From an uncultured Flavobacteriaceae bacterium (GTDB lineage Bacteria > Bacteroidota > Bacteroidia > Flavobacteriales > Flavobacteriaceae), in contig CAVOQU010000012.1 of NCBI GenBank assembly GCA_963698455.1, positions 83,395 through 147,394 on the forward strand: a stretch of 64,000 nucleotides of DNA, read 5' to 3'. Made by a program: the position numbers and the translations under genes. Below, one piece after another: positions 2,739-51,600 of the stretch. The notes beneath the pieces are model-generated. The model did not search any database, was not told the DNA's origin, and saw only the letters and a list, made by a program, of their open reading frames with translations. Every line of letters begins with the position of its first letter. Position 1 is the first letter of the stretch.

Positions 2739-3443
2739 ATGAACATTGCTTTACTCGGATACGGAAAAATGGGGAAAACCATCGAGCAAATTGCTATAAA
2801 ACGTGGTCATATCATTGTTTTAACGGTTGACAAAGATGATGAAGGTTATGATATTACGAAAGCAGATGTTGCTATAGATTTTAGTGTTCCAACAGTGGCA
2901 TTCAATAACATTTCTAATTGTTTAAATAACGGCGTTCCTGTTATTTCAGGAACCACAGGCTGGTTACATGAATACGATAAAGCCGTTGCTTTATGTAAAG
3001 AAAAAAAAGGCGCTTTTATATATGCATCTAACTATAGTTTAGGCGTAAACATCTTTTTCGAGCTTAATAAAACGCTTGCAAAAATGATGAGTACATTAAA
3101 ACAGTATAACGTTTCTATGGAAGAAATTCATCATACGCAAAAATTAGATGCGCCCAGTGGTACTGCCATTACTTTAGCGAATGACATTATTGCAAATAAT
3201 TCTAATTTTGATAAATGGAAATTAGATGAAACGGGTGAAAAAACGATTCCAATTGTTGCGAAACGCATTGAAGATGTTCCTGGAACACACACTGTTAATT
3301 ACGAAAGTGAAGTAGATACAATTACTATAGAACACATTGCGCATACAAGACAAGGATTTGCACTCGGCGCTGTAATAGCTGCCGAATGGCTCGTAGGAAA
3401 AACAGGTGTATTCACAATGAACGATGTGTTAAATATTGGTTAA
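2739..3443 (+). CDS. dapB: 4-hydroxy-tetrahydrodipicolinate reductase
   Basis: GYGKMG, ISGTTGW, EEIHHTQKLDAPSGTA. Confidence 0.96.
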   Translation: MNIALLGYGKMGKTIEQIAIKRGHIIVLTVDKDDEGYDITKADVAIDFSVPTVAFNNISNCLNNGVPVISGTTGWLHEYDKAVALCKEKKGAFIYASNYSLGVNIFFELNKTLAKMMSTLKQYNVSMEEIHHTQKLDAPSGTAITLANDIIANNSNFDKWKLDETGEKTIPIVAKRIEDVPGTHTVNYESEVDTITIEHIAHTRQGFALGAVIAAEWLVGKTGVFTMNDVLNIG

Positions 3444-3509: not shown

Positions 3510-5088
3510 ATGACACTTATGCAATGGTTTATTTTTATTTTGATTATTCAGGTAATACATGGTTTAGGTACTTGGAAATTATATATTAAAGCAGGTAGAC
3601 AAGCTTGGGAAGCCTTTGTGCCAGTATATAATGGTATAATATTAATGAAGATTATAAACCGCCCTTGGTGGTGGGTTATTCTTTTATTTTTACCAATTGT
3701 AAACCTCATTATGTTTGCCGTTGTTTGGGTTGAAACCGCTCGAAGTTTTGGCAAGAACACTTATTTAGATACCTTTTTAGCTGTTATTACTTTAGGTCTT
3801 TACAACTACTATTTAAATTACGTTGCCGATGTTAAATACATCGAAAACCGAAATTTACACCCAAAATCTGCTTCTGGTGATTGGGTGAGCTCTATTTTGT
3901 TTGCAGTTGTAGCCGCAACCATTGTTCATACGTATTTTATTCAACCGTTCACCATTCCATCATCATCGTTAGAAAAATCGTTATTAGTAGGCGATTTTCT
4001 ATTTGTAAGTAAATTTCATTATGGCGCCAGAGTGCCTATGACAACCGTTGGAGCACCAATGGTACACGACACGATTCCATTTCTTAAAAAGAAATCTTAC
4101 TTATTTGATGATAATTTTTCGGATAAGAAAAACATCATGGGAAAACAAATTACAGTTGCCCTATTTACGCTTTCCGGCATTCGAAAAAATTGAAAGAAAC
4201 GACATTGTGGTTTTCAATCAACCTGCTGATACCTTGCTGGATATGAATGACTTTCATCCAGACAGAAACTATTACAAACCTATTGATAAAAAAACCAACT
4301 TAGTTAAACGATGTGTAGGTGTTGCTGGCGACTCTCTGGAAATTCGCAATGGCTATGTGTATATAAACGGCAAACAAAATGCATTACCAGACAGAGCACA
4401 TTTGCAATTTAGCTATCACGTTCAACCAAAATCTACACAATTTAATCCGGCATATCTTAAAGAACGTTATGACATTACAGATGGTTTTGGCATTATAAAT
4501 AATGAAAATACCTATTATTTTTCTGCTATTTCTGATGAAGCTCGGGACAAATTTAAAGATAATCCAAATGTTCTAAGTATTACACCTGCCCTGGCTAAAA
4601 AAGGAGAACCTAATTCTAGTATGTTTCCACACAACCCAGATTATAATTGGAATGTTGATTTCTTCGGACCCATTTATATTCCTGAAAAAGGAAAAACTAT
4701 TGAGTTGAATTTAAATGTTTTGCCTATTTACGAACGCGTTATTACGGAATATGAAGACAACACCTTACAGATAAGAGGTAACCAAATTTTAATTAATGGT
4801 GAAATTGCAACTAATTATACATTTAAACAAAACTATTACTGGATGATGGGAGATAACCGCCATAACTCTATCGATTCGCGTTATTGGGGGTTTGTACCTT
4901 TTGACCATGTAGTTGGAAAACCTGTTTTTATTTGGATGAGCTGGGACGGGAAAAAACCTCGTTGGGATAGATTCTTTACAACCGTAAGCGGAACTGGAAA
5001 AGCAACCTCGTTCTTCATTCCATTTATTGTTTTTTTGCTTGGATGGTTTGGTTATAATAAATATAGAAATCGCAAAAAAGATAATTGA
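3510..5088 (+). CDS. lepB: Signal peptidase I, split by one extra A near 4130
   Basis: First ORF has the catalytic Ser box (FTIPSSSLEKSLLVGDFLFVSK); second has VKRCVG and GDNRHNSIDSRYWGFVP. Removing one A from the run near 4130 joins the frames. Confidence 0.92.
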
Positions 5089-5092
5089 TTTT

Positions 5093-5171
5093 GTTTTTCC
5101 TACTAAGGCAGGAATACAGTTTAAAGTAGTCAAGATTCAATGAAAAAGATTCCTGCCTTCGCAGGAAAAAC
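5093..5171. repeat. Inverted pair of REP-like hairpins
   Basis: GTTTTTCCTACTAAGGCAGGAATAC (5093-5117) and AGATTCCTGCCTTCGCAGGAAAAAC (5147-5171) match at 21/25 as inverted repeats. Confidence 0.8.
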
Positions 5172-5178
5172 AGCAGCA

Positions 5179-5802
5179 ATGAACATCATCATACATCCAA
5201 CATATTTTCCAAACATTGCACATTTTGTGGCTATAACAAAAGCTGAATATGTCATGTTTGAAGTGGAGGATAATTTTCTAAAACAAACCTATAGAAACCG
5301 AACTTATATTTATGAAGCAAACGGAAAATTAGCTTTAAATATCCCTGTTATTCACACACAAAAAAACCGACAGAAGTATCGCGATGTCAAAATTTTTAAC
5401 GATACCAAATGGCAGGAATTACATTGGAAATCGTTACTTTCAGCTTACAGAACATCGCCGTTTTTCGAATTTTATGAACATGAATTACAACCATTATTCA
5501 GCATGAAAACAGAATATATTTTAGATTATAATTTGAAATGCTTTGATGTAATTTGCGAGTGTTTACAGTTAGATTTGAAGATTTCAAAATCTGAAGTCTA
5601 TCAGAAAACTATAGAAAACACGACGGATTATAGATTTTTGGTAAATGCGAAAAAAGAAAACCCTCAATGCTTTGATGAATACACGCAAGTTTTTAATGAA
5701 AAACATGGGTTTATTCCGAATCTGAGTATTTTAGATTTACTATTTAACGAAGGTCCCAACGCCCTAAATTATTTAGAATCACAAACCATATCACTTCAAT
5801 AA
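5179..5802 (+). CDS. WbqC family protein
   Basis: HPTYFPNIAHF, RNRT, YRTSPFFEFY, NLSILDLLFNEGP. Start placed at 5179 because the upstream MKKIPAFAG is REP-derived. Confidence 0.85.
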   Translation: MNIIIHPTYFPNIAHFVAITKAEYVMFEVEDNFLKQTYRNRTYIYEANGKLALNIPVIHTQKNRQKYRDVKIFNDTKWQELHWKSLLSAYRTSPFFEFYEHELQPLFSMKTEYILDYNLKCFDVICECLQLDLKISKSEVYQKTIENTTDYRFLVNAKKENPQCFDEYTQVFNEKHGFIPNLSILDLLFNEGPNALNYLESQTISLQ

Positions 5803-6110
5803 TGTTACAAACTTTAGCACATTATGGTTGCCATTTTTTGATTCCCTTAGGCGTGGCGTTCGTTTTTTATAAATCGAGTTGGAAATTTGCTTTTTTAATA
5901 ATGATTTTAGGCATGCTTATAGATTTAGACCATCTTTTAGCAACGCCCATTTTTGATTCAAATAGATGTAGCATCAACTTTCATCCACTTCACTCCTACT
6001 TTGCGATTGGTGTTTATGTATTGCTACTAATTCCGAAGAAAACCAGATTAATTGCATTGGGTTTGGTAATACATATTTTTGCAGACACAGTAGATTGTGC
6101 TTTAATGTAA
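5802..6110 (+). CDS. Small membrane protein (DUF6122-like)
   Basis: IDLDHLLATPIFDSNRCSINFHPLHS motif; hydrophobic. Confidence 0.7.
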   Translation: MLQTLAHYGCHFLIPLGVAFVFYKSSWKFAFLIMILGMLIDLDHLLATPIFDSNRCSINFHPLHSYFAIGVYVLLLIPKKTRLIALGLVIHIFADTVDCALM

Positions 6111-6152
6111 TTTTTCTATTTATATTAAGAAACTTAAAACTGAAACCGAAAA

Positions 6153-7178
6153 CTACTCTTTCAAACTTAAAGTAGCCATAATAGGATAATGATCGGAGTA
6201 ATGCTGATTATACGTTTTAAATCCGTTTACTTCAAAATCGGTATCTGCAAAAATATAATCAATTCGCACAGGGAAAAATTTAAAATCATAAGTACGTCCA
6301 AAACCATTTCCCGCTTTTTTGAAAGTATCATTTAAATCGCCTTTAATTTTTCGATACACATACGAATATGCTGTATTATTAAAATCGCCGCAAATAATCA
6401 TTTTATAATGACATTGGTTTTTATGTAACAAAAATATTTCAGACTGAAATTGTTGTCTTTTAAATGTATTCTCTACTTGTTTGAAAAGACGTGAAGTGCT
6501 TTCCTTTTTAAGTTTTTCAACATCTGTATCAATCTTCAATGATTGCAGGTGAATATTATAAATTCTAATGGTGTCTTTACCCTTAACAACATCAGCAAAT
6601 ATGGCATTATTCGCCGTATTAGGAAACTCTAACGATCCGGAATTTATAATGGGAAATTTAGATAGAATAACCTGTCCGTTATGTATTTTATTTCCAGATG
6701 TTTTTTCGAACTTATATTTAAAAAAAGATAAATCGACTTTAGGGTTAGGACGATAATCTTGAATACATAAAATATCTGGTGTTTCTGCTTTAATAAAATC
6801 TACAATTTTTGTGTCGATACTTTTCTCTGGAATCCAATCGTACAGATTAAACAATCTTACGTTGTAATTCATAACCTTAATATTATTTGGGCTCTCAATT
6901 TTTAATGAAGATGAAAATTTGTATAATGACCCAAACACTAATTGTCCAATTATAAGCACTACCAAAGAAATAAATAATTGCTTTTCCAACTTTACTAACC
7001 AGTACAAGAAAAATAAAACATTACATAAAATTAGAATAGGAACACTTAAACTAAGTACCGATAATACTGCAAAAGCTCTGGGTGGTAAAAAAGGTAAGGC
7101 GTAAGCTAATAATAACACGATAGCACCCAAAATATTGACCCAATAGACAGCTTTATTGATGGTGCTTAGTTTTTTCAT
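6153..7178 (-). CDS. Endonuclease/exonuclease/phosphatase family protein with N-terminal TM helices
   Basis: MNYNVRLF, ICGDFNN, RIDYIF and SDHYPI motifs. Confidence 0.9.
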   Translation of the reverse strand: MKKLSTINKAVYWVNILGAIVLLLAYALPFLPPRAFAVLSVLSLSVPILILCNVLFFLYWLVKLEKQLFISLVVLIIGQLVFGSLYKFSSSLKIESPNNIKVMNYNVRLFNLYDWIPEKSIDTKIVDFIKAETPDILCIQDYRPNPKVDLSFFKYKFEKTSGNKIHNGQVILSKFPIINSGSLEFPNTANNAIFADVVKGKDTIRIYNIHLQSLKIDTDVEKLKKESTSRLFKQVENTFKRQQFQSEIFLLHKNQCHYKMIICGDFNNTAYSYVYRKIKGDLNDTFKKAGNGFGRTYDFKFFPVRIDYIFADTDFEVNGFKTYNQHYSDHYPIMATLSLKE

Positions 7179-23609: not shown

Positions 23610-23629
23610 AACTCGTTAAAAACATAAAA

Positions 23630-23692
23630 ATGAAATCAATTTTAAATAATACTTGGTGGTGGAGCTTTCTAAACTTACGTTACGTGAAGTAA
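23630..23692 (+). CDS. trpL: trp operon leader peptide
   Basis: MKSILNNTWWWSFLNLRYVK*: three tandem TGG codons upstream of a terminator and trpE. Confidence 0.9.
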   Translation: MKSILNNTWWWSFLNLRYVK

Positions 23693-23723
23693 AATCCTAG
23701 TATATTTAAAACTTAAAATATCC

Positions 23724-23757
23724 AAAAGGCTTGTCGTTCACGACAAGCCTTTTTTTT
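23724..23757 (+). terminator. trp attenuator terminator
   Basis: AAAAGGCTTGTCG-ttca-CGACAAGCCTTTTTTTT. CGTGAA at the end of the leader can pair with TTCACG in this hairpin, a candidate antiterminator. Confidence 0.88.
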
Positions 23758-23764
23758 AGAGTAT

Positions 23765-24148
23765 TTTGTCATTTCCGCGAAGGCGGAAATCTTAAACTTA
23801 TTATAGATGTTTAATGAAGACACATATTATATTTACATTATGACAAATAAGAAAAATGGTGTAATTTATATTGGAATGACGGGAAATTTTAAGCAAAGAA
23901 TAAATCAACACAAGAAAAAATATAGCAGCGGATTTACAAATAAATACAATTTAGATTTATTGGTTTATTATGAAAAATTTCAGAATCCAAACGAAGCAAT
24001 TAAAAGAGAAAAACAAATAAAAAAATGGAATAGATCATGGAAAATCAATTTGATAAACGATTTTAACCCAGATTGGAACGATTTAAGTTATTTTTTTAAC
24101 ACTTAGGTAGAATAATAAAAAGATTTCCGCGTTCGCGGAAATGACAAA
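23765..24148 (+). mobile_element. REP-flanked GIY-YIG nuclease cassette (putative selfish element)
   Basis: 28-bp inverted repeats at 23765-23792 (TTTGTCATTTCCGCGAAGGCGGAAATCT) and 24121-24148 (AGATTTCCGCGTTCGCGGAAATGACAAA), one mismatch, enclosing a single GIY-YIG ORF. No target-site duplication visible. Confidence 0.7.
23807..24106 (+). CDS. Stand-alone GIY-YIG nuclease family protein
   Basis: YYIYIM (GIY), IYIGMT (YIG), conserved R in QRINQH, E in AIKREKQIK, and C-terminal WKINLI...NPDWNDL. Confidence 0.93.
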   Translation: MFNEDTYYIYIMTNKKNGVIYIGMTGNFKQRINQHKKKYSSGFTNKYNLDLLVYYEKFQNPNEAIKREKQIKKWNRSWKINLINDFNPDWNDLSYFFNT

Positions 24149-24158
24149 GACATTTTAA

Positions 24159-25565
24159 ATGACAAAATACAATTTATATACACATTACAAAAAAATTCTG
24201 GCAGATACTATTACACCTGTTAGTATTTATTTGAAAATTAGAGATAAATACCCAAATAGTATATTGCTTGAAAGTAGCGATTACCATGCCAATGATAATA
24301 CGTTTCTCATACATCTGTTTTAACCCTATTGCAACTATTAAGGTTGAAAACGAAACTATTTTTCAAACTTTTCCTGATGGAAGCGAAACTTCAAATCCAA
24401 TTACTAAAACTACCGATGTTTCCGAAGAAATTAATCAATTCACCAAACGTTTTAAAGTGAATTCTGAAGAAGAATTTCAAGTTTATAAATAATGGTATTT
24501 TTGGCTACATCGCTTATGATGCAGTAAGATATTTTGAAGATGTTGAAATTTCAAAAAAAGAAAATTCAGTAGCAATTCCAGATGTTAATTATGCTGTTTA
24601 TCAAAATATTATTGCCATAAATCATCATAAAAACGAAGCATATATTTTTGCGCATTGTTTTAATTCTGAACCTAATATTGAAGAAATAGATCATTTAATT
24701 AAAGTTAAAAACTTTGCGTCTTACAACTTTTCTTCAAATGGAGATATTAACTTCGAATTTAACTGATGACGAATACAAAAACCATGTAGAATTAGCAAAA
24801 AAACATTGTGGACGTGGTGATGTATTTCAATTGGTATTGTCAAAAAGTTTTTCACAGGAATTTAAAGGCGATGAATTTAATGTATATCGTGCTTTAAGAA
24901 GTATCAATCCGTCACCATATTTATTCTATTTCGATTATGGAAATTTTAAAATATTTGGAAGTTCTCCAGAAGCACAACTTGTTGTGAGCGATGGAAAAGC
25001 CGAAATACACCCAATTGCTGGAACTTTTAAACGAACAGGAAACGATACTCAAGATGCCGAATTAGCTCAACAATTGGTTGTAGACGATAAAGAAAATGCA
25101 GAACATGTTATGCTGGTAGATTTGGCAAGAAACGATTTAAGTAGACATGGCAGCGACGTTACTGTAGACACCTATCGTGAAGTTCAGTTTTTCTCACACG
25201 TTATCCATTTAGTTAGCAAAGTTACAGGACAGAAACACAAAGAAACCTCAACCATGCAGATGGTTGCCGACACTTTTCCTGCTGGAACTTTAAGTGGTGC
25301 GCCAAAGCACAGAGCGATGCAACTTATTGAAAAATACGAAAAAACGAGTCGTTCTTTTTACGGTGGCGCTATTGGGTTTATGGATTTTGATGGTAATTTT
25401 AATCACGCCATTATGATACGTACATTTTTAAGTAAAAACCACAAATTACATTGGCAAGCAGGTGCAGGAATAGTATCTAAATCAAGTCCGGAAAACGAAT
25501 TAGAAGAAGTATATAATAAATTAGGGGCCCTAACAAAAGCTATTGAATTAGCTGAAGAAATATAA
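24159..25565 (+). CDS. trpE: Anthranilate synthase component I (several frameshifts in the 5' half)
   Basis: Manual start MTKYNLYTHYKKILADTITPVSIYLKIRD; C-terminal INPSPY, GSSPE, PIAGT, EHVMLVDLARND, FPAGTLSGAPK. Confidence 0.93.
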
Positions 25566-25691
25566 TTCCTGAGTAGGCAGGAAATCCTCCAAGAGGAAAC
25601 AATAAACATAAGTCCATTAAAACATTCGTGTATTCGTGGCAAAGAAAAATTAAATTAATTAAATATAGATTCCTGCTTTCGCAGGAATGAC
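25566..25691. repeat. Inverted REP pair between trpE and trpG
   Basis: TTCCTGAGTAGGCAGGAAATCC directly after the trpE stop, and AGATTCCTGCTTTCGCAGGAATGAC at 25667-25691. Confidence 0.8.
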
Positions 25692-25697
25692 AAAAAA

Positions 25698-26264
25698 ATG
25701 ACGAAAGTACTAGTTATAGATAATTACGACAGTTTTACATACAATCTTGTACATTATTTAGAAGATTTAAATTGCGATGTTACCGTTGTTAGAAATGATA
25801 AACTAAGTTTAGATGACGTGGAGCCTTTTGATAAAATTGTATTATCTCCAGGACCTGGAATTCCAGATGAAGCTGGTTTATTAAAACCAATTATTAAAAG
25901 ATATGCACCTACAAAAAGTATTTTAGGGGTTTGTTTAGGACAACAAGCTATTGGTGAAGTTTTTGGAGGTTCTCTTATTAATTTGGAGGATGTATATCAT
26001 GGTGTTGCAACAAAAGTAACCATTTGTGTTAACGATGAATCCTTATTTAAAGGCATGGATAAAGAGATTGAAGTTGGTCGTTATCATTCTTGGGTGGTAA
26101 ATCCAAATTTACCGGATTGTTTAGAAGCCACTTCTTTTGATGCAAACGGACAAGTGATGTCGTTACGTCATAAAGTTTACGATGTAAAAGGTGTACAATA
26201 CCATCCAGAATCGGTATTAACACCAAACGGAAAACAGATATTAAAAAACTGGTTATCAAATTAA
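25698..26264 (+). CDS. trpG: Anthranilate synthase component II
   Basis: IDNYDSFTYN, SPGPG, GVCLG, QYHPES. Confidence 0.96.
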   Translation: MTKVLVIDNYDSFTYNLVHYLEDLNCDVTVVRNDKLSLDDVEPFDKIVLSPGPGIPDEAGLLKPIIKRYAPTKSILGVCLGQQAIGEVFGGSLINLEDVYHGVATKVTICVNDESLFKGMDKEIEVGRYHSWVVNPNLPDCLEATSFDANGQVMSLRHKVYDVKGVQYHPESVLTPNGKQILKNWLSN

Positions 26265-26330
26265 GCAAAAGACAAAAAATTAAAAATCAAAAGAAAACAC
26301 TTGTGATTTCGTGCCTTAAAAAATAAAAGA

Positions 26331-27324
26331 ATGAAAATTATATTAAACAGACTTATAAATCACGAAAGCATTTCCAGCGAAGAAGCAAAACAGGTTTTGG
26401 TAAATATCTCAAAAGGAGATTATAACCAAAGTCAAATTGCAGCTTTTCTAACCGTTTATCATGATGCGAAGTATCACTCTTGAAGAATTACGAGGTTTTC
26501 GAGATGCACTTTTAGAATTATGTATTCCTATCGATTTAAAAGATTTTAATGCGATTGATTTATGTGGAACTGGTGGTGATGGAAAAGACACCTTTAACAT
26601 TTCAACCTTAGCATCTTTTGTAACTGCTGGTGCAGGCGTAAATGTTGCAAAACATGGAAATTATGGTGTGTCATCTACTTGTGGATCTTCAAATGTTATG
26701 GAATTTTTAGGTATTAAATTTTCAAGTGATGAAGATTTTTTAAAACACTCTATTGATAAAGCTGGAATTTGTGTTTTACATGCACCTTTGTTTCATCCAG
26801 CTATGAAAAATGTGGCACCTATTCGTCGCGAATTAGGTGTAAAAACCTTTTTCAATATGTTAGGTCCTATGGTAAATCCATCATTTCCAAAAAATCAAAT
26901 GGTAGGTGTTTTTAATTTAGAATTGCTTCGTCTGTATGGATATCTTATATCAAAATACCGATAAAAATTATTCCATTGTTCATGCTTTAGATGGTTATGA
27001 TGAAATATCTTTAACAGGACCAACCAAAGTGATTTCAAATCATGCAGAAACCATGTTTTCACCAGAAGATTTAGGACTTTCAGAAATAACGCAAGAATCT
27101 ATTTTTGGAGGAAACACAGTAGAATCATCTGCCAAAATTTTTATGAATGTCATTCAAGGGAAAGGTACAGAAGCACAAAACAATGTGGTTTGTGCCAATG
27201 CTGGTTTAGCAATTGCAACCGCAAATCAAAATTGAGTCATAAGACAGGTTTTGAACTAGCAAAAGAATCTTTATTAAGTGGAAAAGCAAAACGAGTTTAG
27301 TAAATTAATGAATTAAGTAAATAA
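26331..27324 (+). CDS. trpD: Anthranilate phosphoribosyltransferase (frameshifted)
   Basis: DLCGTGGDG, FNIST, KHGN, TFFNMLGP, DGYDEIS. End coordinate approximate. Confidence 0.9.
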
Positions 27325-27354
27325 GTCAATACGAGAGAAACGACGAAGTAATCT
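27325..27354 (+). repeat. Single REP half between trpD and trpC
   Basis: GTCAATACGAGAGAAACGACGAAGTAATCT resembles the left arms at 28481 and 28902; it starts directly after a TAA. Confidence 0.7.
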
Positions 27355-27393
27355 CTAAAGAATTAGAGCTAAAATGCAATGATTCAAGAAAAA

Positions 27394-28170
27394 ATGAATA
27401 TACTAGACAAATAGTAGCGATAAACGCATTGAAGTCGATTTAAGAAAATCGTTAATTCCTGTTAAACAATTGGAACAATCAGTTTTATTTGAAAGACAAA
27501 CCATTTCATTAGCAAATAAATTACGATCAATAGTCAAACAGGAATTATCGCAGAACATAAACGTAGGTCACCTTCAAAATCTGTTATCAATCAAAACTTA
27601 AATGTATTTGATGTCGCAAAAGGCTATGAAGATGCAGGTGTTTGTGGGATGTCTGTTTTAACCGATGGAAAATATTTTGGTGGTTCTTTAGACGATTTAT
27701 TAACTGCACAGAGCAAGTTGTAATTTACCACTTATTACGTAAAGAATTTATTATTGACGAATACCAATTATTAGAAGCTAAAGCCTATGGTGCCGATGTT
27801 ATTTTACTAATTGCAGCTATTTTAACCAGAGAAGAAATCAAACAGTTTTCAGAATTTGCAAAAAGCTTAAATTTGGATGTGTTATTAGAAGTTCATAATG
27901 AAGAAGAATTACATAAATCCATCATGCCAAGTTTAGATATGTTTGGTGTAAACAATCGAAATTTAAAAACCTTTGACGTCAGTTTAGAAACCAGTAAAAG
28001 ACTTAAGTAAACTAATTCCAAACGATTTTGTAAAAGTATCAGAAAGTGGTATTAGTACTATTGAAGCCATTAAAGAATTACAACCTTATGGATATCAAGG
28101 TTTTTTAATTGGTGAAAATTTTATGAAAACCGATAATGCAGGTGAAAGTGCAAAACAATTTATATAATAG
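27394..28170 (+). CDS. trpC: Indole-3-glycerol phosphate synthase (frameshifted)
   Basis: IIAEHKRRSPSK read manually; LLRKEFIIDEYQ, EVHNEEEL, GVNNRNLKTF, VSESGI. End approximate. Confidence 0.88.
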
Positions 28171-28189
28171 AACTATTACGAAGAGAACA

Positions 28190-28932
28190 TGAAACTATAA
28201 AGAAGATTCTGCTGGCAATGCAAAATATCAAATTGGGATGAAATATCAGACATGCAAGTTGCAGCCTTGCAACCAGACTATCTTGGTTTTATATTTTATG
28301 AAAAATCTGCAAGAAACTTTGATTCTAAAAACATTCCTAAATTACCTAAATCCATCAAAAAAGTAGGTGTTTTTGTTGATGCAGATTTAGAATGTTGTTA
28401 TTGAAAAAATAAAAACACATAATTTACAGGCAGTTCAATTGCATGGTGATGAATCTCCTGAATATTGTTTAAAATTAAAACGTCATTACGAGGCGAGAAA
28501 CAACGAAGTAATCTCATCAAAAGAAGCAGATTGCTTCGACTTTGAAAAAAAGTCTCGCAATGACGATAAACTAGAAATCATCAAAGTATTTTCCATCAAA
28601 GACGAATTCAATTTTGATGTTTTGAAACCTTATGAAGATGTTTGCGATTACTTTTTATTTGACACCAAAGGAAAATTACCAGGAGGCAATGGTTACACTT
28701 TCGATTGGAATGTTTTAAACAATTATCCATCAACAAAACCTTTCTTTTTAAGTGGTGGAATTGGATTAGAAGAATTAGAAAACTTAAAAAATTTAAACAA
28801 AGTAAGGCTTCAAAATATTGTTATGCCATCGATGTGAATAGCAAATTTGAAATAGAAGCAGGATTAAAAAATATAGAATTATTACAAAAATTTAAAGACA
28901 CTGTCATTACGAAAGAGAAACGACTGAAGTAA
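28190..28932 (+). CDS. trpF: Phosphoribosylanthranilate isomerase (frameshifted, with in-frame REP insertion)
   Basis: PDYLGFIFY, VGVFV, QLHGDES, FLFDTKG...GGNG..FDW, FFLSGGIG, IDVNSKFE. The 5' end is garbled, so the start is approximate. Confidence 0.85.
28481..28565. repeat. CGTC-tagged REP dimer inside trpF
   Basis: Outer arms CGTCATTACGAG / CTCGCAATGACG and inner arms CGAAGTAATCT / AGATTGCTTCG. Confidence 0.88.
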
Positions 28933-28987
28933 TCTCATAATTTGAAATTTAAAACAAACAGATTGCTTCACTGCGTTCGCAATGACG
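28902..28987. repeat. REP dimer overlapping the trpF 3' end
   Basis: TGTCATTACGAA...TGAAGTAATCT / AGATTGCTTCA...TTCGCAATGACG. Confidence 0.88.
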
Positions 28988-29026
28988 ATAGTATAAAATC
29001 AAAAAGACTCTTAAATGACAAAAATT

Positions 29027-30211
29027 ATGAAATTACAACGTTAACGAAAAAGGTTATTATGGCGAATTTGGAGGTGCATATATTCCAGAAATGCTATATC
29101 CAAATGTGGAAGAATTACGCCAAAATTATTTAAAAATAATGGCAGAACCCGACTTTAAAAAAGAGTTCGACCAACTTTTAAAAGATTATGTAGGACGTCC
29201 TTCTCCACTCTATTTTGCAAAACGACTTTCTAGAAAAATACAACACCAAAATATATTTAAAGCGTGAAGATTTAAATCATACTGGTGCACATAAAATCAA
29301 TAATACCATCGGGCAGATTCTCATGGCAAAACGTTTGGGTAAAACCCGAATTATTGCCGAAACTGGAGCAGGTCAACATGGTGTTGCCACTGCTACCGTT
29401 TGTGCTTTAATGGGACTGGAGTGTATTGTTTACATGGGTGAAATTGATATTGCACGTCAAGCACCAAACGTGGCTCGTATGAAAATGTTAGGAGCTACGG
29501 TTGTTCCTGCATTATCAGGAAGTCGAACTCTAAAAGATGCCACTAATGAAGCCATTCGCGATTGGATTAACAATCCTGTTGACACGCATTACATTATTGG
29601 TTCTGCTATTGGTCCGCACCCCTATCCAGATATGGTGACGCGGTTTCAATCGGTCATTTCCGAAGAAATAAAATGGCAATTAAAAGAACAAGAAGGTCGT
29701 GAAAATCCTGATTATGTGGTGGCTTGTATTGGTGGTGGTAGTAATGCCGCAGGTACATATTATCACTTTTTACACGAAGAAGATGTTAACATTATTGCTG
29801 TTGAAGCCGCTGGTTTAGGCATCGATTCTGGTGAAAGTGCTGCCACTTCAGTATTAGGAAAAGAAGGTATTATTCATGGTTGCAAAACCTTGTTAATGCA
29901 AACTAACGATGGGCAAATTACAGAACCCTACTCCATTTCCGCTGGATTAGATTATCCTGGTGTTGGTCCAATGCATGCTCATTTATCAAAAACAGGTCGT
30001 GCTGAATTTATGTCTATTACAGATGATGATGCTATGGAAGCTGGTTTAGAACTCTCAAAATTAGAAGGTATTATTCCAGCTATTGAAACATCACATGCGC
30101 TTGCTATTTTCTAACACAAAATCTTTAAACCAGACGATGTGGTGGTGGTAAGTCTTATCTGGTCGTGGAGATAAGGATTTAGACACGTATATTAATTATT
30201 TTAAATTATAA
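29027..30211 (+). CDS. trpB: Tryptophan synthase beta chain (frameshifted)
   Basis: [52 protein letters not shown]. Confidence 0.95.
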
Positions 30212-30272
30212 CGTCATTCAGAACAAAGTGAAGGAATCTCGCTATACCGATTGCTTCGTTCCTCGCAATGAC
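30212..30272. repeat. REP dimer between trpB and trpA
   Basis: CGTCATTCAGAACAAAGTGAAGGAATCT directly after the trpB TAA, then GATTGCTTCGTTCCTCGCAATGAC. Confidence 0.82.
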
Positions 30273-30286
30273 AAAACAATATTATT

Positions 30287-31048
30287 ATGAATCGAATTCA
30301 AAATAAATTAAAAGAAAATAAAAAGTTACTTTCTATATATTTTACAGCAGGTTATCCTAATCTAAATGATACGGTTACTATTATTCAAGACTTGGAAAAA
30401 AGTGGCGTTGATATGATTGAAATTGGTTTGCCTTTTAGCGACCCACTTGCCGATGGTCCAACCATTCAAGCCAGTTCTACGCAGGCTTTAAAAAATGGGA
30501 TGACTACAGAAGTGCTTTTTAATCAATTAAAAGATATTCGGAAATCAGTTTCAATTCCATTAATCATCATGGGCTATTTTAACCCGATGCTTCAATATGG
30601 TGTAGAAGCATTCTGTAAAAAATGCAAGGAAATAGGTATTGATGGATTAATTATTCCTGATTTACCCGTAGATGTATATCATGAAGAATACAAAACCATT
30701 TTTGAAAAATACGGGCTTATCAACGTGTTTTTAATTACGCCACAAACATCTGTAGAACGCATCAATTTTATTGATTCAATTTCCAACGGATTTATTTACA
30801 TGGTAAGTAGCGCCAGTGTTACAGGTTCACAATCTGGATTTGGCGAAGAACAAACTAATTACTTTAAACGTATTGCAGACATGAATTTAAAGAACCCACA
30901 AATCATTGGGTTTGGTATTTCAGACAATAAAACCTTTACTCAGGCTACACGATACGCCAAAGGCGCCATTATTGGTAGTGCTTTTATTAAATTTCTTAAT
31001 GATAATTCTATAGAAAGTATAAACAATTTCGCTAAATTTATAAGATAA
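30287..31048 (+). CDS. trpA: Tryptophan synthase alpha chain
   Basis: IEIGLPFSDPLADGPTIQ, GFGIS, GAIIGSAF. Confidence 0.97.
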   Translation: MNRIQNKLKENKKLLSIYFTAGYPNLNDTVTIIQDLEKSGVDMIEIGLPFSDPLADGPTIQASSTQALKNGMTTEVLFNQLKDIRKSVSIPLIIMGYFNPMLQYGVEAFCKKCKEIGIDGLIIPDLPVDVYHEEYKTIFEKYGLINVFLITPQTSVERINFIDSISNGFIYMVSSASVTGSQSGFGEEQTNYFKRIADMNLKNPQIIGFGISDNKTFTQATRYAKGAIIGSAFIKFLNDNSIESINNFAKFIR

Positions 31049-44528: not shown

Positions 44529-46217
44529 ATGCAGCTTTCTGAACAAGAATTAGTAAGAAGAGAAAAACTTACCAAACTACGCGAATTAGGTATAAACCCC
44601 TATCCAGCCGATTTATATCCGGTAACTCATACATCGAAACAAATTAAGGCGCAATTTGAGACAGATAAGAAGGTCGTTATTGCCGGCAGATTGATGCTGA
44701 TAAAAGTGCAAGGAAAAGCCAGTTTTGCCGATTTACAAGATGCTGAAGGGAAAATACAAGTTTATTTTAACCGTGACGAAATTTGCCCAGGTGAAGACAA
44801 AGTAAAATATAACGAGGTTTTTAAAAAGCTGTTAGATTTTGGCGATTTTGTGGGTATTGAAGGTGAATTATTCACCACACAAGTAGGCGAAAACAGTGTA
44901 CGCGTAAAAGACTTTACCTTATTAAGTAAAGCCCTAAAGCCGTTACCTTTACCTAAAGAAAAAGATGGTGTAGTCTTTGATGCTTTTACAGATCCCGAAC
45001 AACGATACAGACAACGCTATGCGGATTTAGTGGTAAACCCACAAGTGAAGAATATTTTTGTAAAGCGTACCAAATTATTTAATGCCATGCGTCAGTTTTT
45101 TAACGACGCTGGGTATTTTGAAGTAGAAACGCCGGTCTTGCAACCTATTCCAGGTGGTGCTGCGGCACGTCCGTTTGCTACACATCATAATGCTTTAGAT
45201 ATTCCATTATACTTGCGAATTGCCAACGAATTGTATTTAAAACGATTAATTGTTGGGGGTTTCGATGGCGTTTACGAGTTTTCAAAAAACTTTAGAAACG
45301 AAGGCATGGACCGGACTCATAACCCAGAGTTTACCGCAATGGAAATTTATGTGGCTTACAAAGATTACAACTGGATGATGGAATTCTGTGAACGATTGCT
45401 CGAACATTGTGCGATGGCCGTAAATGGTACCACAAAAGCAACTTTTGGCAAACATGAAATAGATTTTAAAGCGCCTTATGCTAGAATAACCATGGCAGAT
45501 TCTATAAAACAATTTACTGGTTTTGATATTACCGGAAAAACTGAAAATGAGATTAGAACTGCTGCAAAAAGTATGGGTGTTGAAGTTGATGACACCATGG
45601 GCAAAGGCAAACTTATTGATGAAATTTTTGGCGAAAAATGTGAGAGTAACTACATCCAGCCAACCTACATTACCGACTACCCGAAAGAGATGAGTCCGCT
45701 ATGTAAAGAACACAGAGAAAACCCAGAATTAACAGAGCGTTTTGAGTTAATGGTTTGTGGAAAAGAAATAGCGAACGCCTATTCAGAATTAAACGACCCG
45801 ATTGATCAACGTGAGCGTTTTGAACACCAAATGGAATTAGCAAAAAAAGGTGACGATGAAGCTACTGGGACCATCGATTACGACTTTTTACGTGCTTTAG
45901 AATACGGAATGCCACCAACATCTGGTATGGGAATTGGCATGGACAGATTAATTATGTTTTTAACTAACAACCAATCAATTCAAGAAGTTTTATTCTTCCC
46001 GCAAATGCGTCCGGAGAAAAAAGCAGTAGATTTAAGTGATTCTGAAAAAGCTATTTTTGAAATTTTAAAATCGCAAAAAAGCATGTCTTTAAACGACCTG
46101 AAATCGCAATCTGGTTTAAGTAACAAAGCCTGGGATAAAGGCATTAAAGGATTAACTAAACACAAATTAGCAAACGTTACTAAAACGGATGATGACTTAA
46201 TTGTTGAAATAGTTTAA
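44529..46217 (+). CDS. lysS: Lysyl-tRNA synthetase
   Basis: [42 protein letters not shown]. Confidence 0.98.
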
Positions 46218-46220
46218 TAA

Positions 46221-46240
46221 CATTTCCGCGAAAGCGAAAT
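46221..46240 (+). repeat. Single REP hairpin of the same subtype as the GIY-YIG flanks
   Basis: CATTTCCGCGAAAGCGAAAT compared with the flank CATTTCCGCGAAGGCGGAAAT. Confidence 0.65.
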
Positions 46241-51428: not shown

Positions 51429-51600
51429 TGGGCGTTACCACACCCTTCGACTCCGCTCAGGGCAGGCGGTCGGGTCTTCCGCTATATCTTTTTAAAATGG
51501 CGTCGTTAAAACGAGCAACATAGCAATCTCCCAATTTAAAGTCCAAAGCAAGTTCATTACAAAAAGTTTTAAAAAGGATGCCGCTACAACCCCTAACGCA
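51429..51600 (+). ncRNA. Flavo-1-like structured RNA/repeat element
   Basis: GGGCGTTACC...GGTCGGGTCTTCCGCTATATCTTTTT...AAAAAGGATGCCGCTACAACCCCTAACGC; GCGTTA/TAACGC and ATCTTTTTAAAA/TTTTAAAAAGGAT pair. Resemblance to Rfam Flavo-1 is from memory, not a search. Confidence 0.65.

Follow-up and report, generated by a model that had tools for sequence, protein, structure and literature searches.

Two described systems come close to the hairpin repeats that are the subject of this work. The CGTC-tagged repetitive extragenic palindromes (REPs) published in 2013 are already known to be located downstream of genes, to supply stop codons and to form in-frame dimers (Di Nocera, De Gregorio & Rocco 2013, PMC3733652). 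Small GIY-YIG proteins named Ssn, published in 2025, are flanked by such motifs, bind them solely as single-stranded DNA (ssDNA) and cut a few nucleotides upstream; the motif of Neisseria, NTS, has the consensus CGTCATTCCCGCGMAVGCGGGAATCYRG, and the role of Ssn outside Neisseria is left open in the discussion of that paper (Chenal et al. 2025, Nat Commun 16:2388, PMC11893778). As the pairing of Ssn and motif was shown there, the association of the nuclease with REP arms is not new in itself. Here we describe the tryptophan (trp) operon of an uncultured Flavobacteriaceae bacterium (G000; 3.70 Mb, 17 contigs, 32–33% G+C), which lies in a stretch of 64,000 nucleotides (the window, C12:83395-147394) and which carries a gene for such a nuclease, ssn, together with REP arms of several classes. 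The order is Bacteroid-trp leader, arm, a GIY-YIG open reading frame (ORF) of 99 amino acids (aa), arm, trpE, trpG, trpD, trpC, trpF, trpB and trpA. Similarity of the Ssn and Trp proteins relates the genome to marine Flavobacteriaceae, e.g. Algibacter, Hyunsoonleella, Jejuia and Seonamhaeicola. In the following, G stands before the numbers of genomes, C before those of contigs and L before those of loci.

The arms are CGTC-tagged REPs, alias Ssn-related motifs (SRMs). With a probability of roughly 0.7 we read the locus as an old trp cassette to which separate, later dimers of two other arm classes have been added. The arms would then be the recognition sites, in ssDNA form, of small GIY-YIG Ssn nucleases, and each of three Ssn lineages in the genome would have an arm class of its own. 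The arm-ssn-arm cassette between attenuator and trpE would be old and vertically inherited, and the inverted dimers of the other two classes, composite hairpins that resemble REP doublets forming hairpins (REPINs), would be later insertions into short spacers and one permissive TrpF loop, neither seeded by the local nuclease nor targeted to TAA. Such dimers may persist because they do not terminate transcription and either keep the reading frame or supply a stop codon. Arms were called by a strict rule, which requires GTCATT followed by an unbroken stem (4–5 bp or more from ATT onwards) and by AATC, and the parts of the locus are the following, in coordinates of the window:

23610..23735, plus strand: Bacteroid-trp leader, a Trp-codon leader peptide attenuator whose terminator reaches to about 23760; Rfam RF01692 matches over the full model (1-131) with 55 bits, the gathering score being 49.
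23765..23793, plus strand: left arm of the ssn cassette, TGTCATTTCCGCGAAGGCGGAAATCT (strict rule; RNA hairpin of -11.3 kcal/mol, z -3.4).
23807..24106, plus strand: ssn, 99-aa single-domain GIY-YIG protein of the trp-operon-resident Ssn clade (Pfam PF01541, E 3.9e-19).
24120..24148, minus strand: right arm of the ssn cassette, GTCATTTCCGCGAACGCGGAAATC on the minus strand (strict rule, profile search, folding).
24159..25565, plus strand: trpE, its frame broken by three 1-nt insertions in the assembly (aligned to G014 and G009, whose orthologs are intact with 467 aa).
25565..25583, plus strand: arm ATTCCTGAGTAGGCAGGAA, degenerate in that the GTC head is missing; it begins at the stop codon of trpE (nhmmer E 0.015).
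25666..25694, minus strand: arm GTCATTCCTGCGAAAGCAGGAATC of the NTS-like class, just before trpG (strict rule, profile search).
25698..31048, plus strand: trpG (25698-26264), trpD, trpC, trpF, trpB (29027-30211) and trpA (30287-31048); trpD, trpC, trpF and trpB with small indels, probably of the assembly.
27325..27385, plus strand: decayed arm dimer at the trpD/trpC junction, GTCAATACGAG...GAAGTAATC, then ...GCAATGAT (alignment).
28480..28566, plus strand: inverted arm dimer in frame inside trpF (ATTACGA on plus, ATTGCGA on minus), 84 nt or 28 codons.
28902..28988, plus strand: arm dimer at the trpF/trpB junction (strict rule, alignment, folding).
30212..30272, plus strand: arm dimer at the trpB/trpA junction, CGTCATTCAGAAC...GGAATCT on plus and GTCATTGCGAGGAACGAAGCAATC on minus (strict rule).

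A sequence-only reading of the window had counted 11 arms in the 6.5 kb between 23765 and 30272 and about four in the other 57 kb, and both counts hold. All 11 are present, nine of them canonical (23768+, 24122-, 25668-, 28482+, 28529-, 28903+, 28961-, 30213+ and 30249- by the strict rule) and two degenerate, namely the headless arm at 25565+ and the arm at 27325+, which begins with GTCAAT and has a decayed partner near 27366-27385. For the rest of the window a profile search (nhmmer) gives some three to four weak arms, namely two paired arms at 5097-5167, a fragment covering 46221-46236 and a low-scoring hit at 51513. The pair is NTS-like and located between ORFs 4048-5088 and 5140-5802, one arm being degenerate and the other reading TTCCTGCGAAGGCAGGAATCT on the minus strand; the fragment, CATTTCCGCGAAAGCG, follows directly after ORF 44529-46217 and is of the arm type of the trp-resident ssn, of which the window has no further trace beyond the cassette itself.

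Genome-wide the strict rule finds 177 arms against 15–17 in Markov-2 simulated genomes, which served as background, and about 0.3 arms are expected per 6.5 kb. A looser arm finder gave 176 hits against 52 in simulation and lost true arms, and was dropped as inferior to the strict rule. Two 6.5-kb intervals, both of them arrays, contain more arms than the trp region (21 arms at C2:257 kb, 10 at C17:143 kb), which is thus third in arm density, and by separate repeat sites the trp operon ranks first in the 3.7-Mb genome, with six in 7 kb against four for the next interval. No other multi-junction operon was found genome-wide, the next-best interval (C1:68 kb) consisting of neighbouring intergenic sites and not of an operon. 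The earlier proposal of a REP-type family that is tied to a GIY-YIG nuclease and concentrated non-randomly in the trp region is borne out by these data.

The trp arms have at least three different cores, as had been seen before: ATTTCCGC twice, ATTCCTG twice and ATTACGA/ATTGCGA (in the following RCGA) six to seven times, including one ATTCAGA variant. Position -1 of the arms is C in 69% and T in 24%, and the base after AATC is T in 90%, giving the unit [C/T]GTCATT-hairpin-AATCT. The traits of CGTC REPs are therewith present, i.e. the unpaired CGTC/TGTC tag, a stem opening with ATT and the tail CT. The ATTTCCGC and ATTCCTGC arms have 8-bp stems and GAAG/GAAA loops, which is within the range of CGTC REPs (8–9 bp stem, 4–5 nt loop), and two genomic arm copies read GTCATTCCCGCGAAGGCGGGAATC and match NTS. 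Most arms form inverted pairs with their GTCA heads pointing outward, and most pairs are heterodimers (ATTACGA + ATTGCGA) folding into long composite hairpins: the dimer inside trpF reaches -32.3 kcal/mol (z -6.4), and the arms at 25565 and 25666-25694 fold together as a composite hairpin of 137 nt with -30.9 kcal/mol. No sense-strand terminator is predicted at any of the arms, nor does a T-run follow any of them on that strand; as the U-tract is missing there, the dimers should not terminate transcription.

Judged by its sequence, the GIY-YIG ORF encodes an Ssn-type nuclease and is a candidate member of the Ssn family (cd10448; proteins of about 94–106 aa). The product consists of a single GIY-YIG domain (PF01541 over residues 7–81 of 99) with no extra DNA-binding domain, and Y10, Y21 and E68 are spaced by 11 and 47 residues exactly as Y6, Y17 and E64, which were mutated in SsnA of N. 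meningitidis (PMC11893778). These three residues are invariant in three arm-flanked paralogs of the genome and in all trp-linked orthologs. A PDB sequence search with Ssn returned solely UPF0213 structures (E 4e-5), which say little about Ssn, and the trp-resident Ssn shows 50–57% identity to homologs in Rickettsiales, Bradyrhizobium and Patescibacteria. Inverted arms stand 14–15 nt from each end of the ssn ORF, and the copy on contig C6 and many homologs across phyla are flanked likewise. Altogether the genome encodes five GIY-YIG paralogs, three of them Ssn-type with arms and two UPF0213-like without arms, the latter serving as an internal control; in the protein tree the three arm-flanked copies group with arm-flanked homologs from many phyla, apart from the UPF0213-like paralogs.

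Each arm-flanked paralog is found with a different arm class. The trp copy is flanked by ATTTCCGC arms (two copies), the C6 copy by NTS-like ATTCC arms (ATTCCTGC, about 27 copies), and the C2 copy lies in an RCGA array, a class with 118 copies. The same pairing of class and paralog is seen elsewhere, as the G009 ortholog of the C2 type is located within RCGA arms and relatives of the C2 clade in RCGA arrays. The array at C2:257097-261801 comprises about 30 RCGA arms with ssn in the middle, including runs of alternating arms at a regular spacing of about 125 bp, and a second RCGA array at C17:143204-147953 has 10 arms and no ssn.

The retention of ssn in trp operons is striking, and the leader/trpE cassette is no stray insertion. 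Orthologs of ssn with 68–91% identity are found at the same position in G003 (91% aa identity) and at least six other genera; G011 has kept the right arm alone after a deletion, and G009, G014 and G008 have a different spacer of 30 nt instead of the cassette. The ten best hits outside the genus, which come from Hyunsoonleella, several Algibacter species, Jejuia, Seonamhaeicola, Flavivirga and a Flavobacteriaceae metagenome-assembled genome (MAG), show the leader, an arm about 30–70 nt further on, ssn, an arm and trpE. In L059 (Aggregatimonas MAG) and L062 (uncultured Flavobacteriaceae bacterium) ssn stands directly upstream of trpE. No leader match at the Rfam gathering score was obtained in L059, L062 and L055 (Seonamhaeicola), although terminator, arms and ssn of L055 do align. 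Across genera, ssn has a pN of 0.11 against a pS of 0.61, showing strong purifying selection, and the column identity is 94% in the left arm, 96% in the right arm and 98% in the attenuator terminator against 62–82% in the spacers. Two variants of the cassette were observed: in L050 (Algibacter sp. 2305UL17-15) the left arm is present in three tandem copies at about 2890-3000, and in L058 (Flavivirga sp. 57AJ16) about 190 bp have been inserted into the ssn ORF and the right arm has decayed.

A second trp position is equally frequent among the best 80 Ssn loci (tblastn), 12 of which are found at leader/trpE and 12 between trpB and trpA, the latter including loci from Leeuwenhoekiella, Dokdonia, Kordia and Flavimarina. 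The protein tree places the leader/trpE clade (13 rows, support 96/84) as sister to the trpB/trpA clade (10 rows, support 100/93); the trpB/trpA ssn of L117 falls elsewhere in the tree and is therefore an independent event. In a survey of one genome per genus from 150 genera, in which trp positions were matched by hand, 70 genomes had Ssn-type genes with 133 hits, 17 of them in trp operons (4 at leader/trpE and 13 at trpB/trpA) where about 0.3 would be expected for a target of 7 kb; owing to shared ancestry these correspond to few independent events. In the literature we found no report of GIY-YIG or Ssn proteins in connection with a trp operon or the Bacteroid-trp leader, and the main text of Chenal 2025 (PMC11893778) has no mention of Bacteroidota or of an Ssn in a trp operon.

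The occupancy of the trp junctions by dimers varies among 15 congeners, some of which still have empty sites, as seen in an alignment of 16 relatives including two outgroup genera. At trpE/trpG the decayed arm pair is also present in G014, and G009 shows the empty site TAAAAGATG; at trpD/trpC stop and start overlap in the relatives, leaving zero spacer. The site inside trpF is filled likewise in G009, G005, G010, G004 and G001, by other arm types in G007, G013 and G002, and is empty in G014 and the two outgroup genera; at least four arm types thus occur there in different species, all of them starting at the identical position, and the trpF ORF of G009 is open at 263 aa. At trpF/trpB the left arm of the dimer encodes the last residues of TrpF and, 30 nt from the start of the arm, the TAA that ends the gene (28930-32). 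The dimer at trpB/trpA is common to G006 and G012, and G010, G011 and G003 carry a whole ssn cassette there instead. Another shared element (ATGGCGTTACCACAAGGGTCGGGC...CAATCCCTAACGCA...), in several cases followed by a hairpin, is present at this site in G009, G007, G013, G005, G008, G004 and G002, and these varied fillings show that inserts of three or more kinds have settled at the trpB/trpA junction. In G011 (L036) and G003 (L038) the trpB/trpA cassette is itself interrupted by about 0.65 kb with an ORF (MTENEI...) that by eye looks GxxExxY / PD-(D/E)XK-like. In G010 (L033) a Flavo-1 RNA motif (RF01705, 56.8 bits) lies at 6104-6185, approximately where trpE meets trpG and antisense to the operon, and may be another junction-filling repeat.

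The dimers inside trpF, at trpF/trpB and at trpB/trpA all occur in congeners without an ssn in the operon. In other genera with the cassette, 0–1 canonical arms are found in the visible 3 kb downstream, for which reason the crowding of dimers is specific to this genus, in which RCGA arms have proliferated; the 118 RCGA copies of G000 are the most among the relatives. As we read it, dimers were inserted again and again into spacers that tolerate them, some being inherited and others replaced at the same site.

Several points weigh against this reading of the locus. The published SRM motif, HGTCWYN(0-2)YYVSBRHN(0-5)WNVSBRGN(0-2)RNCYNB, has four matches genome-wide as against 1–4 in simulated genomes, and none in the window. 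The RCGA class is outside the published SRM definition and, with its outer stem of 5 bp and its interior of 10–26 nt, also outside the stem and loop range of CGTC REPs. None of the trp arms conforms to the motif, the ATTTCCGC arms deviating from it at a single stem position, yet the architecture of head, hairpin and C after the stem still matches; we therefore reject the SRM expression as a detector here, not as a relationship. The density of arms near ssn is statistically elevated, so that some local growth of arm clusters is possible. Which paralog would serve which arm class is taken from adjacency, and cleavage of ssDNA by the flavobacterial Ssn is a predicted activity.

Among the other explanations, a selected function of the hairpins at the RNA level survives best. 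RNA-level roles have been described for REPs of E. coli, and the hairpins might set segmental mRNA stability, uncouple the translation of cistrons or affect ribosome release near stops. Strong composite hairpins stand exactly in the intercistronic spacers, several junctions are filled across species, sometimes by different arm types at one site, and genome-wide the arms prefer regions downstream of genes, since intergenic regions between convergent genes have 0.55 arms per kb, unidirectional ones 0.22 and divergent ones 0.07. However, the occupancy is patchy, with almost no arms in G014 and the outgroup genera, arm sequences at a given site are replaced and not conserved, and one dimer lies inside a coding region. 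We regard such a function as possible but rather unlikely.

Local seeding, by which the nuclease of the trp operon would copy arms into its neighbourhood with a density falling with distance, had been proposed from the sequence and is largely refuted here. The density of arms near such genes does exceed chance, since 17, 1, 7 and 0 arms lie within 7 kb of the four GIY-YIG hits obtained by tblastn (three of them Ssn-type), two of the four loci being arm-dense with a permutation P of about 0.002–0.004, and the densest array of the genome (C2:257-262 kb, about 30 arms) does contain an ssn. It is the role of the trp copy as the source that is not supported. Genome-wide the ATTTCCGC class of the trp-resident ssn amounts to its two flanks and one fragment elsewhere, and the remaining trp arms are NTS-like (trpE/trpG junction) or RCGA (four sites) and belong to the classes that flank the C6 and C2 paralogs. 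G009, G008, G013, G005 and G001 have no ssn in the operon and carry three to four arms at the same junctions, and G003, with one intact and one interrupted trp ssn cassette, has zero RCGA arms in its genome, which largely amounts to the refutation that had been named together with the proposal; the few downstream arms of other cassette-bearing genera point in the same direction. RCGA counts vary from 0 to 118 per genome among 41 relatives with no obvious correlation to the ssn copy number. G003 and G011 have 8–9 GIY-YIG hits (E 1e-5 or better, UPF0213-like included) and zero RCGA arms, which fits a class-specific pairing. Seeding by the trp copy is therefore unlikely.

A target preference for TAA is not supported either. 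Arms indeed begin right after the TAA of trpE (25563-25565) and of trpB (30209-30211, then C, then GTCATT), and probably after that of trpD. Over all arms, however, the upstream flanks are merely AT-rich and a stop triplet is found within 0–2 nt in 23 of 159 arms; genome-wide, 9 of 101 distances from stop to element are 3 nt or less, and positions in unidirectional gaps are approximately uniform. The apparent adjacency to stops in the trp operon results from elements filling short intercistronic spacers, which natively measure 0–30 nt. Compared with empty sites, no target-site duplication was detected at trpE/trpG, in trpF, at trpB/trpA and at leader/trpE. At trpD/trpC (window 27280-27400) the sequence on either side of the decayed dimer looks like the stop/start overlap that relatives have in one copy, TTCAAGAATTGAGTAAATGAAC; a duplication of about 20 nt on insertion would fit these flanks but is uncertain, the indel noise in trpD making it unsafe.

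A control of recombination has been shown for SsnA and NTS in N. meningitidis (PMC11893778), and by analogy Ssn might cut incoming ssDNA at the arms and limit the allelic replacement of the genes flanked by them. The arms do bracket every trp gene here, but this explanation presupposes that these bacteria are naturally transformable, gives no reason why trp genes should need protection and does not go well with both arm orientations being present at each site, so that we consider it quite unlikely.

That the repeats pile up in the pseudogenes of a decaying operon under relaxed selection would agree with the approximately 20 small frame-breaking indels that trpE, trpD, trpC, trpF and trpB (24159-30211) show in comparison to intact orthologs, but it is very unlikely. 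These indels are mostly +1 and located outside homopolymers, and the trp substitutions unique to G000 comprise 161 synonymous and 34 non-synonymous changes, as in intact relatives. As this substitution pattern indicates purifying selection, the indels are probably patchy assembly or consensus errors and not decay. Like damage is found in three of 12 SusC genes and, by eye, in an apparently split dxs, the rest of the genome being open with 74% of it in ORFs of at least 200 aa, and congeners with intact trp genes carry the same arms. Outside the window, such damage is located at C1:70818-72481 and C1:547762-550688.

Classical REPs moved by a REP-associated tyrosine transposase (RAYT), or miniature inverted-repeat transposable elements moved by a DDE transposase, are most improbable, as despite the resemblance of the inverted dimers (GTCATT...AATGAC) to terminal inverted repeats the tag is CGTC and not GTAG, the compared sites have no target-site duplication and a Y1 transposase (PF01797) is absent from the genome, with control genomes positive.

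The reading of an old ssn cassette and later dimers of other classes has consequences for the function of the nuclease. Due to the placement of ssn behind the tryptophan attenuator, control by the attenuator is to be expected, and transcription of ssn by read-through, like the mode in which the arms are copied, is what we infer from the arrangement of the locus. It is conceivable, and we put it forward tentatively, that this Ssn clade has long been kept as a true gene of the trp operon and that a hairpin-specific ssDNA nuclease is made specifically when tryptophan is exhausted. If this were true, amino-acid starvation would be tied to ssDNA processing, be it of taken-up DNA, in recombination or in the mobilisation of hairpin repeats, and it would be the first known physiological signal controlling an Ssn. 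With a conserved Ssn clade and its hairpins in a well-understood operon the role becomes testable, as tryptophan limitation should switch the nuclease on, and a candidate for the cognate site of the trp-resident Ssn is known, with two copies only. Since the SRM motif misses the main flavobacterial arm class, current repeat counts are underestimates. For annotation, our data account for the short ORFs labelled 'GIY-YIG' and the unusual spacers that occur in trp operons of flavobacteria, as well as for the 28 extra residues of TrpF.

Compared with the CGTC REPs CGTC-1 to -4 (PMC3733652), the arms have in common the CGTC/TGTC tag, stems starting with AT and inverted dimers that are often heterodimers, as well as the location near the 3' ends of genes, the supplied stop codons and in-frame intragenic dimers encoding 20–30 aa. 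The RCGA arms differ by a shorter outer stem and a long structured interior. That paper concluded that CGTC REPs have no dedicated enzyme, in contrast to the Ssn nuclease gene that we find within an inverted arm pair, and to our knowledge reports neither Flavobacteriaceae families nor the colonisation of a whole operon. With REPINs and RAYTs and with the Rickettsia palindromic elements the locus shares inverted doublets forming long hairpins, a single-copy enzyme gene within its own repeats and an in-frame insertion into a protein, the enzyme being a GIY-YIG nuclease here and not the Y1 (HUH) transposase of REPIN/RAYT. With Ssn, NTS and SRM (PMC11893778) it shares a single-domain GIY-YIG protein of about 95–105 aa whose gene lies within inverted hairpin repeats; these begin with a GTCAT head and have a C behind the palindrome, additional copies are numerous and cluster around genes, and several pairs of paralog and repeat occur per genome, the NTS-like class being nearly identical to Neisseria NTS. 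The differences are that the dominant RCGA class fails the SRM motif and that one Ssn clade is fixed in the trp operon behind a tryptophan attenuator in many Flavobacteriaceae genera. To these published systems the present analysis adds an arm class outside the published motif, the colonisation of an entire operon, with an in-frame insert in TrpF that several species have in common, and a conserved, trp-resident Ssn clade.

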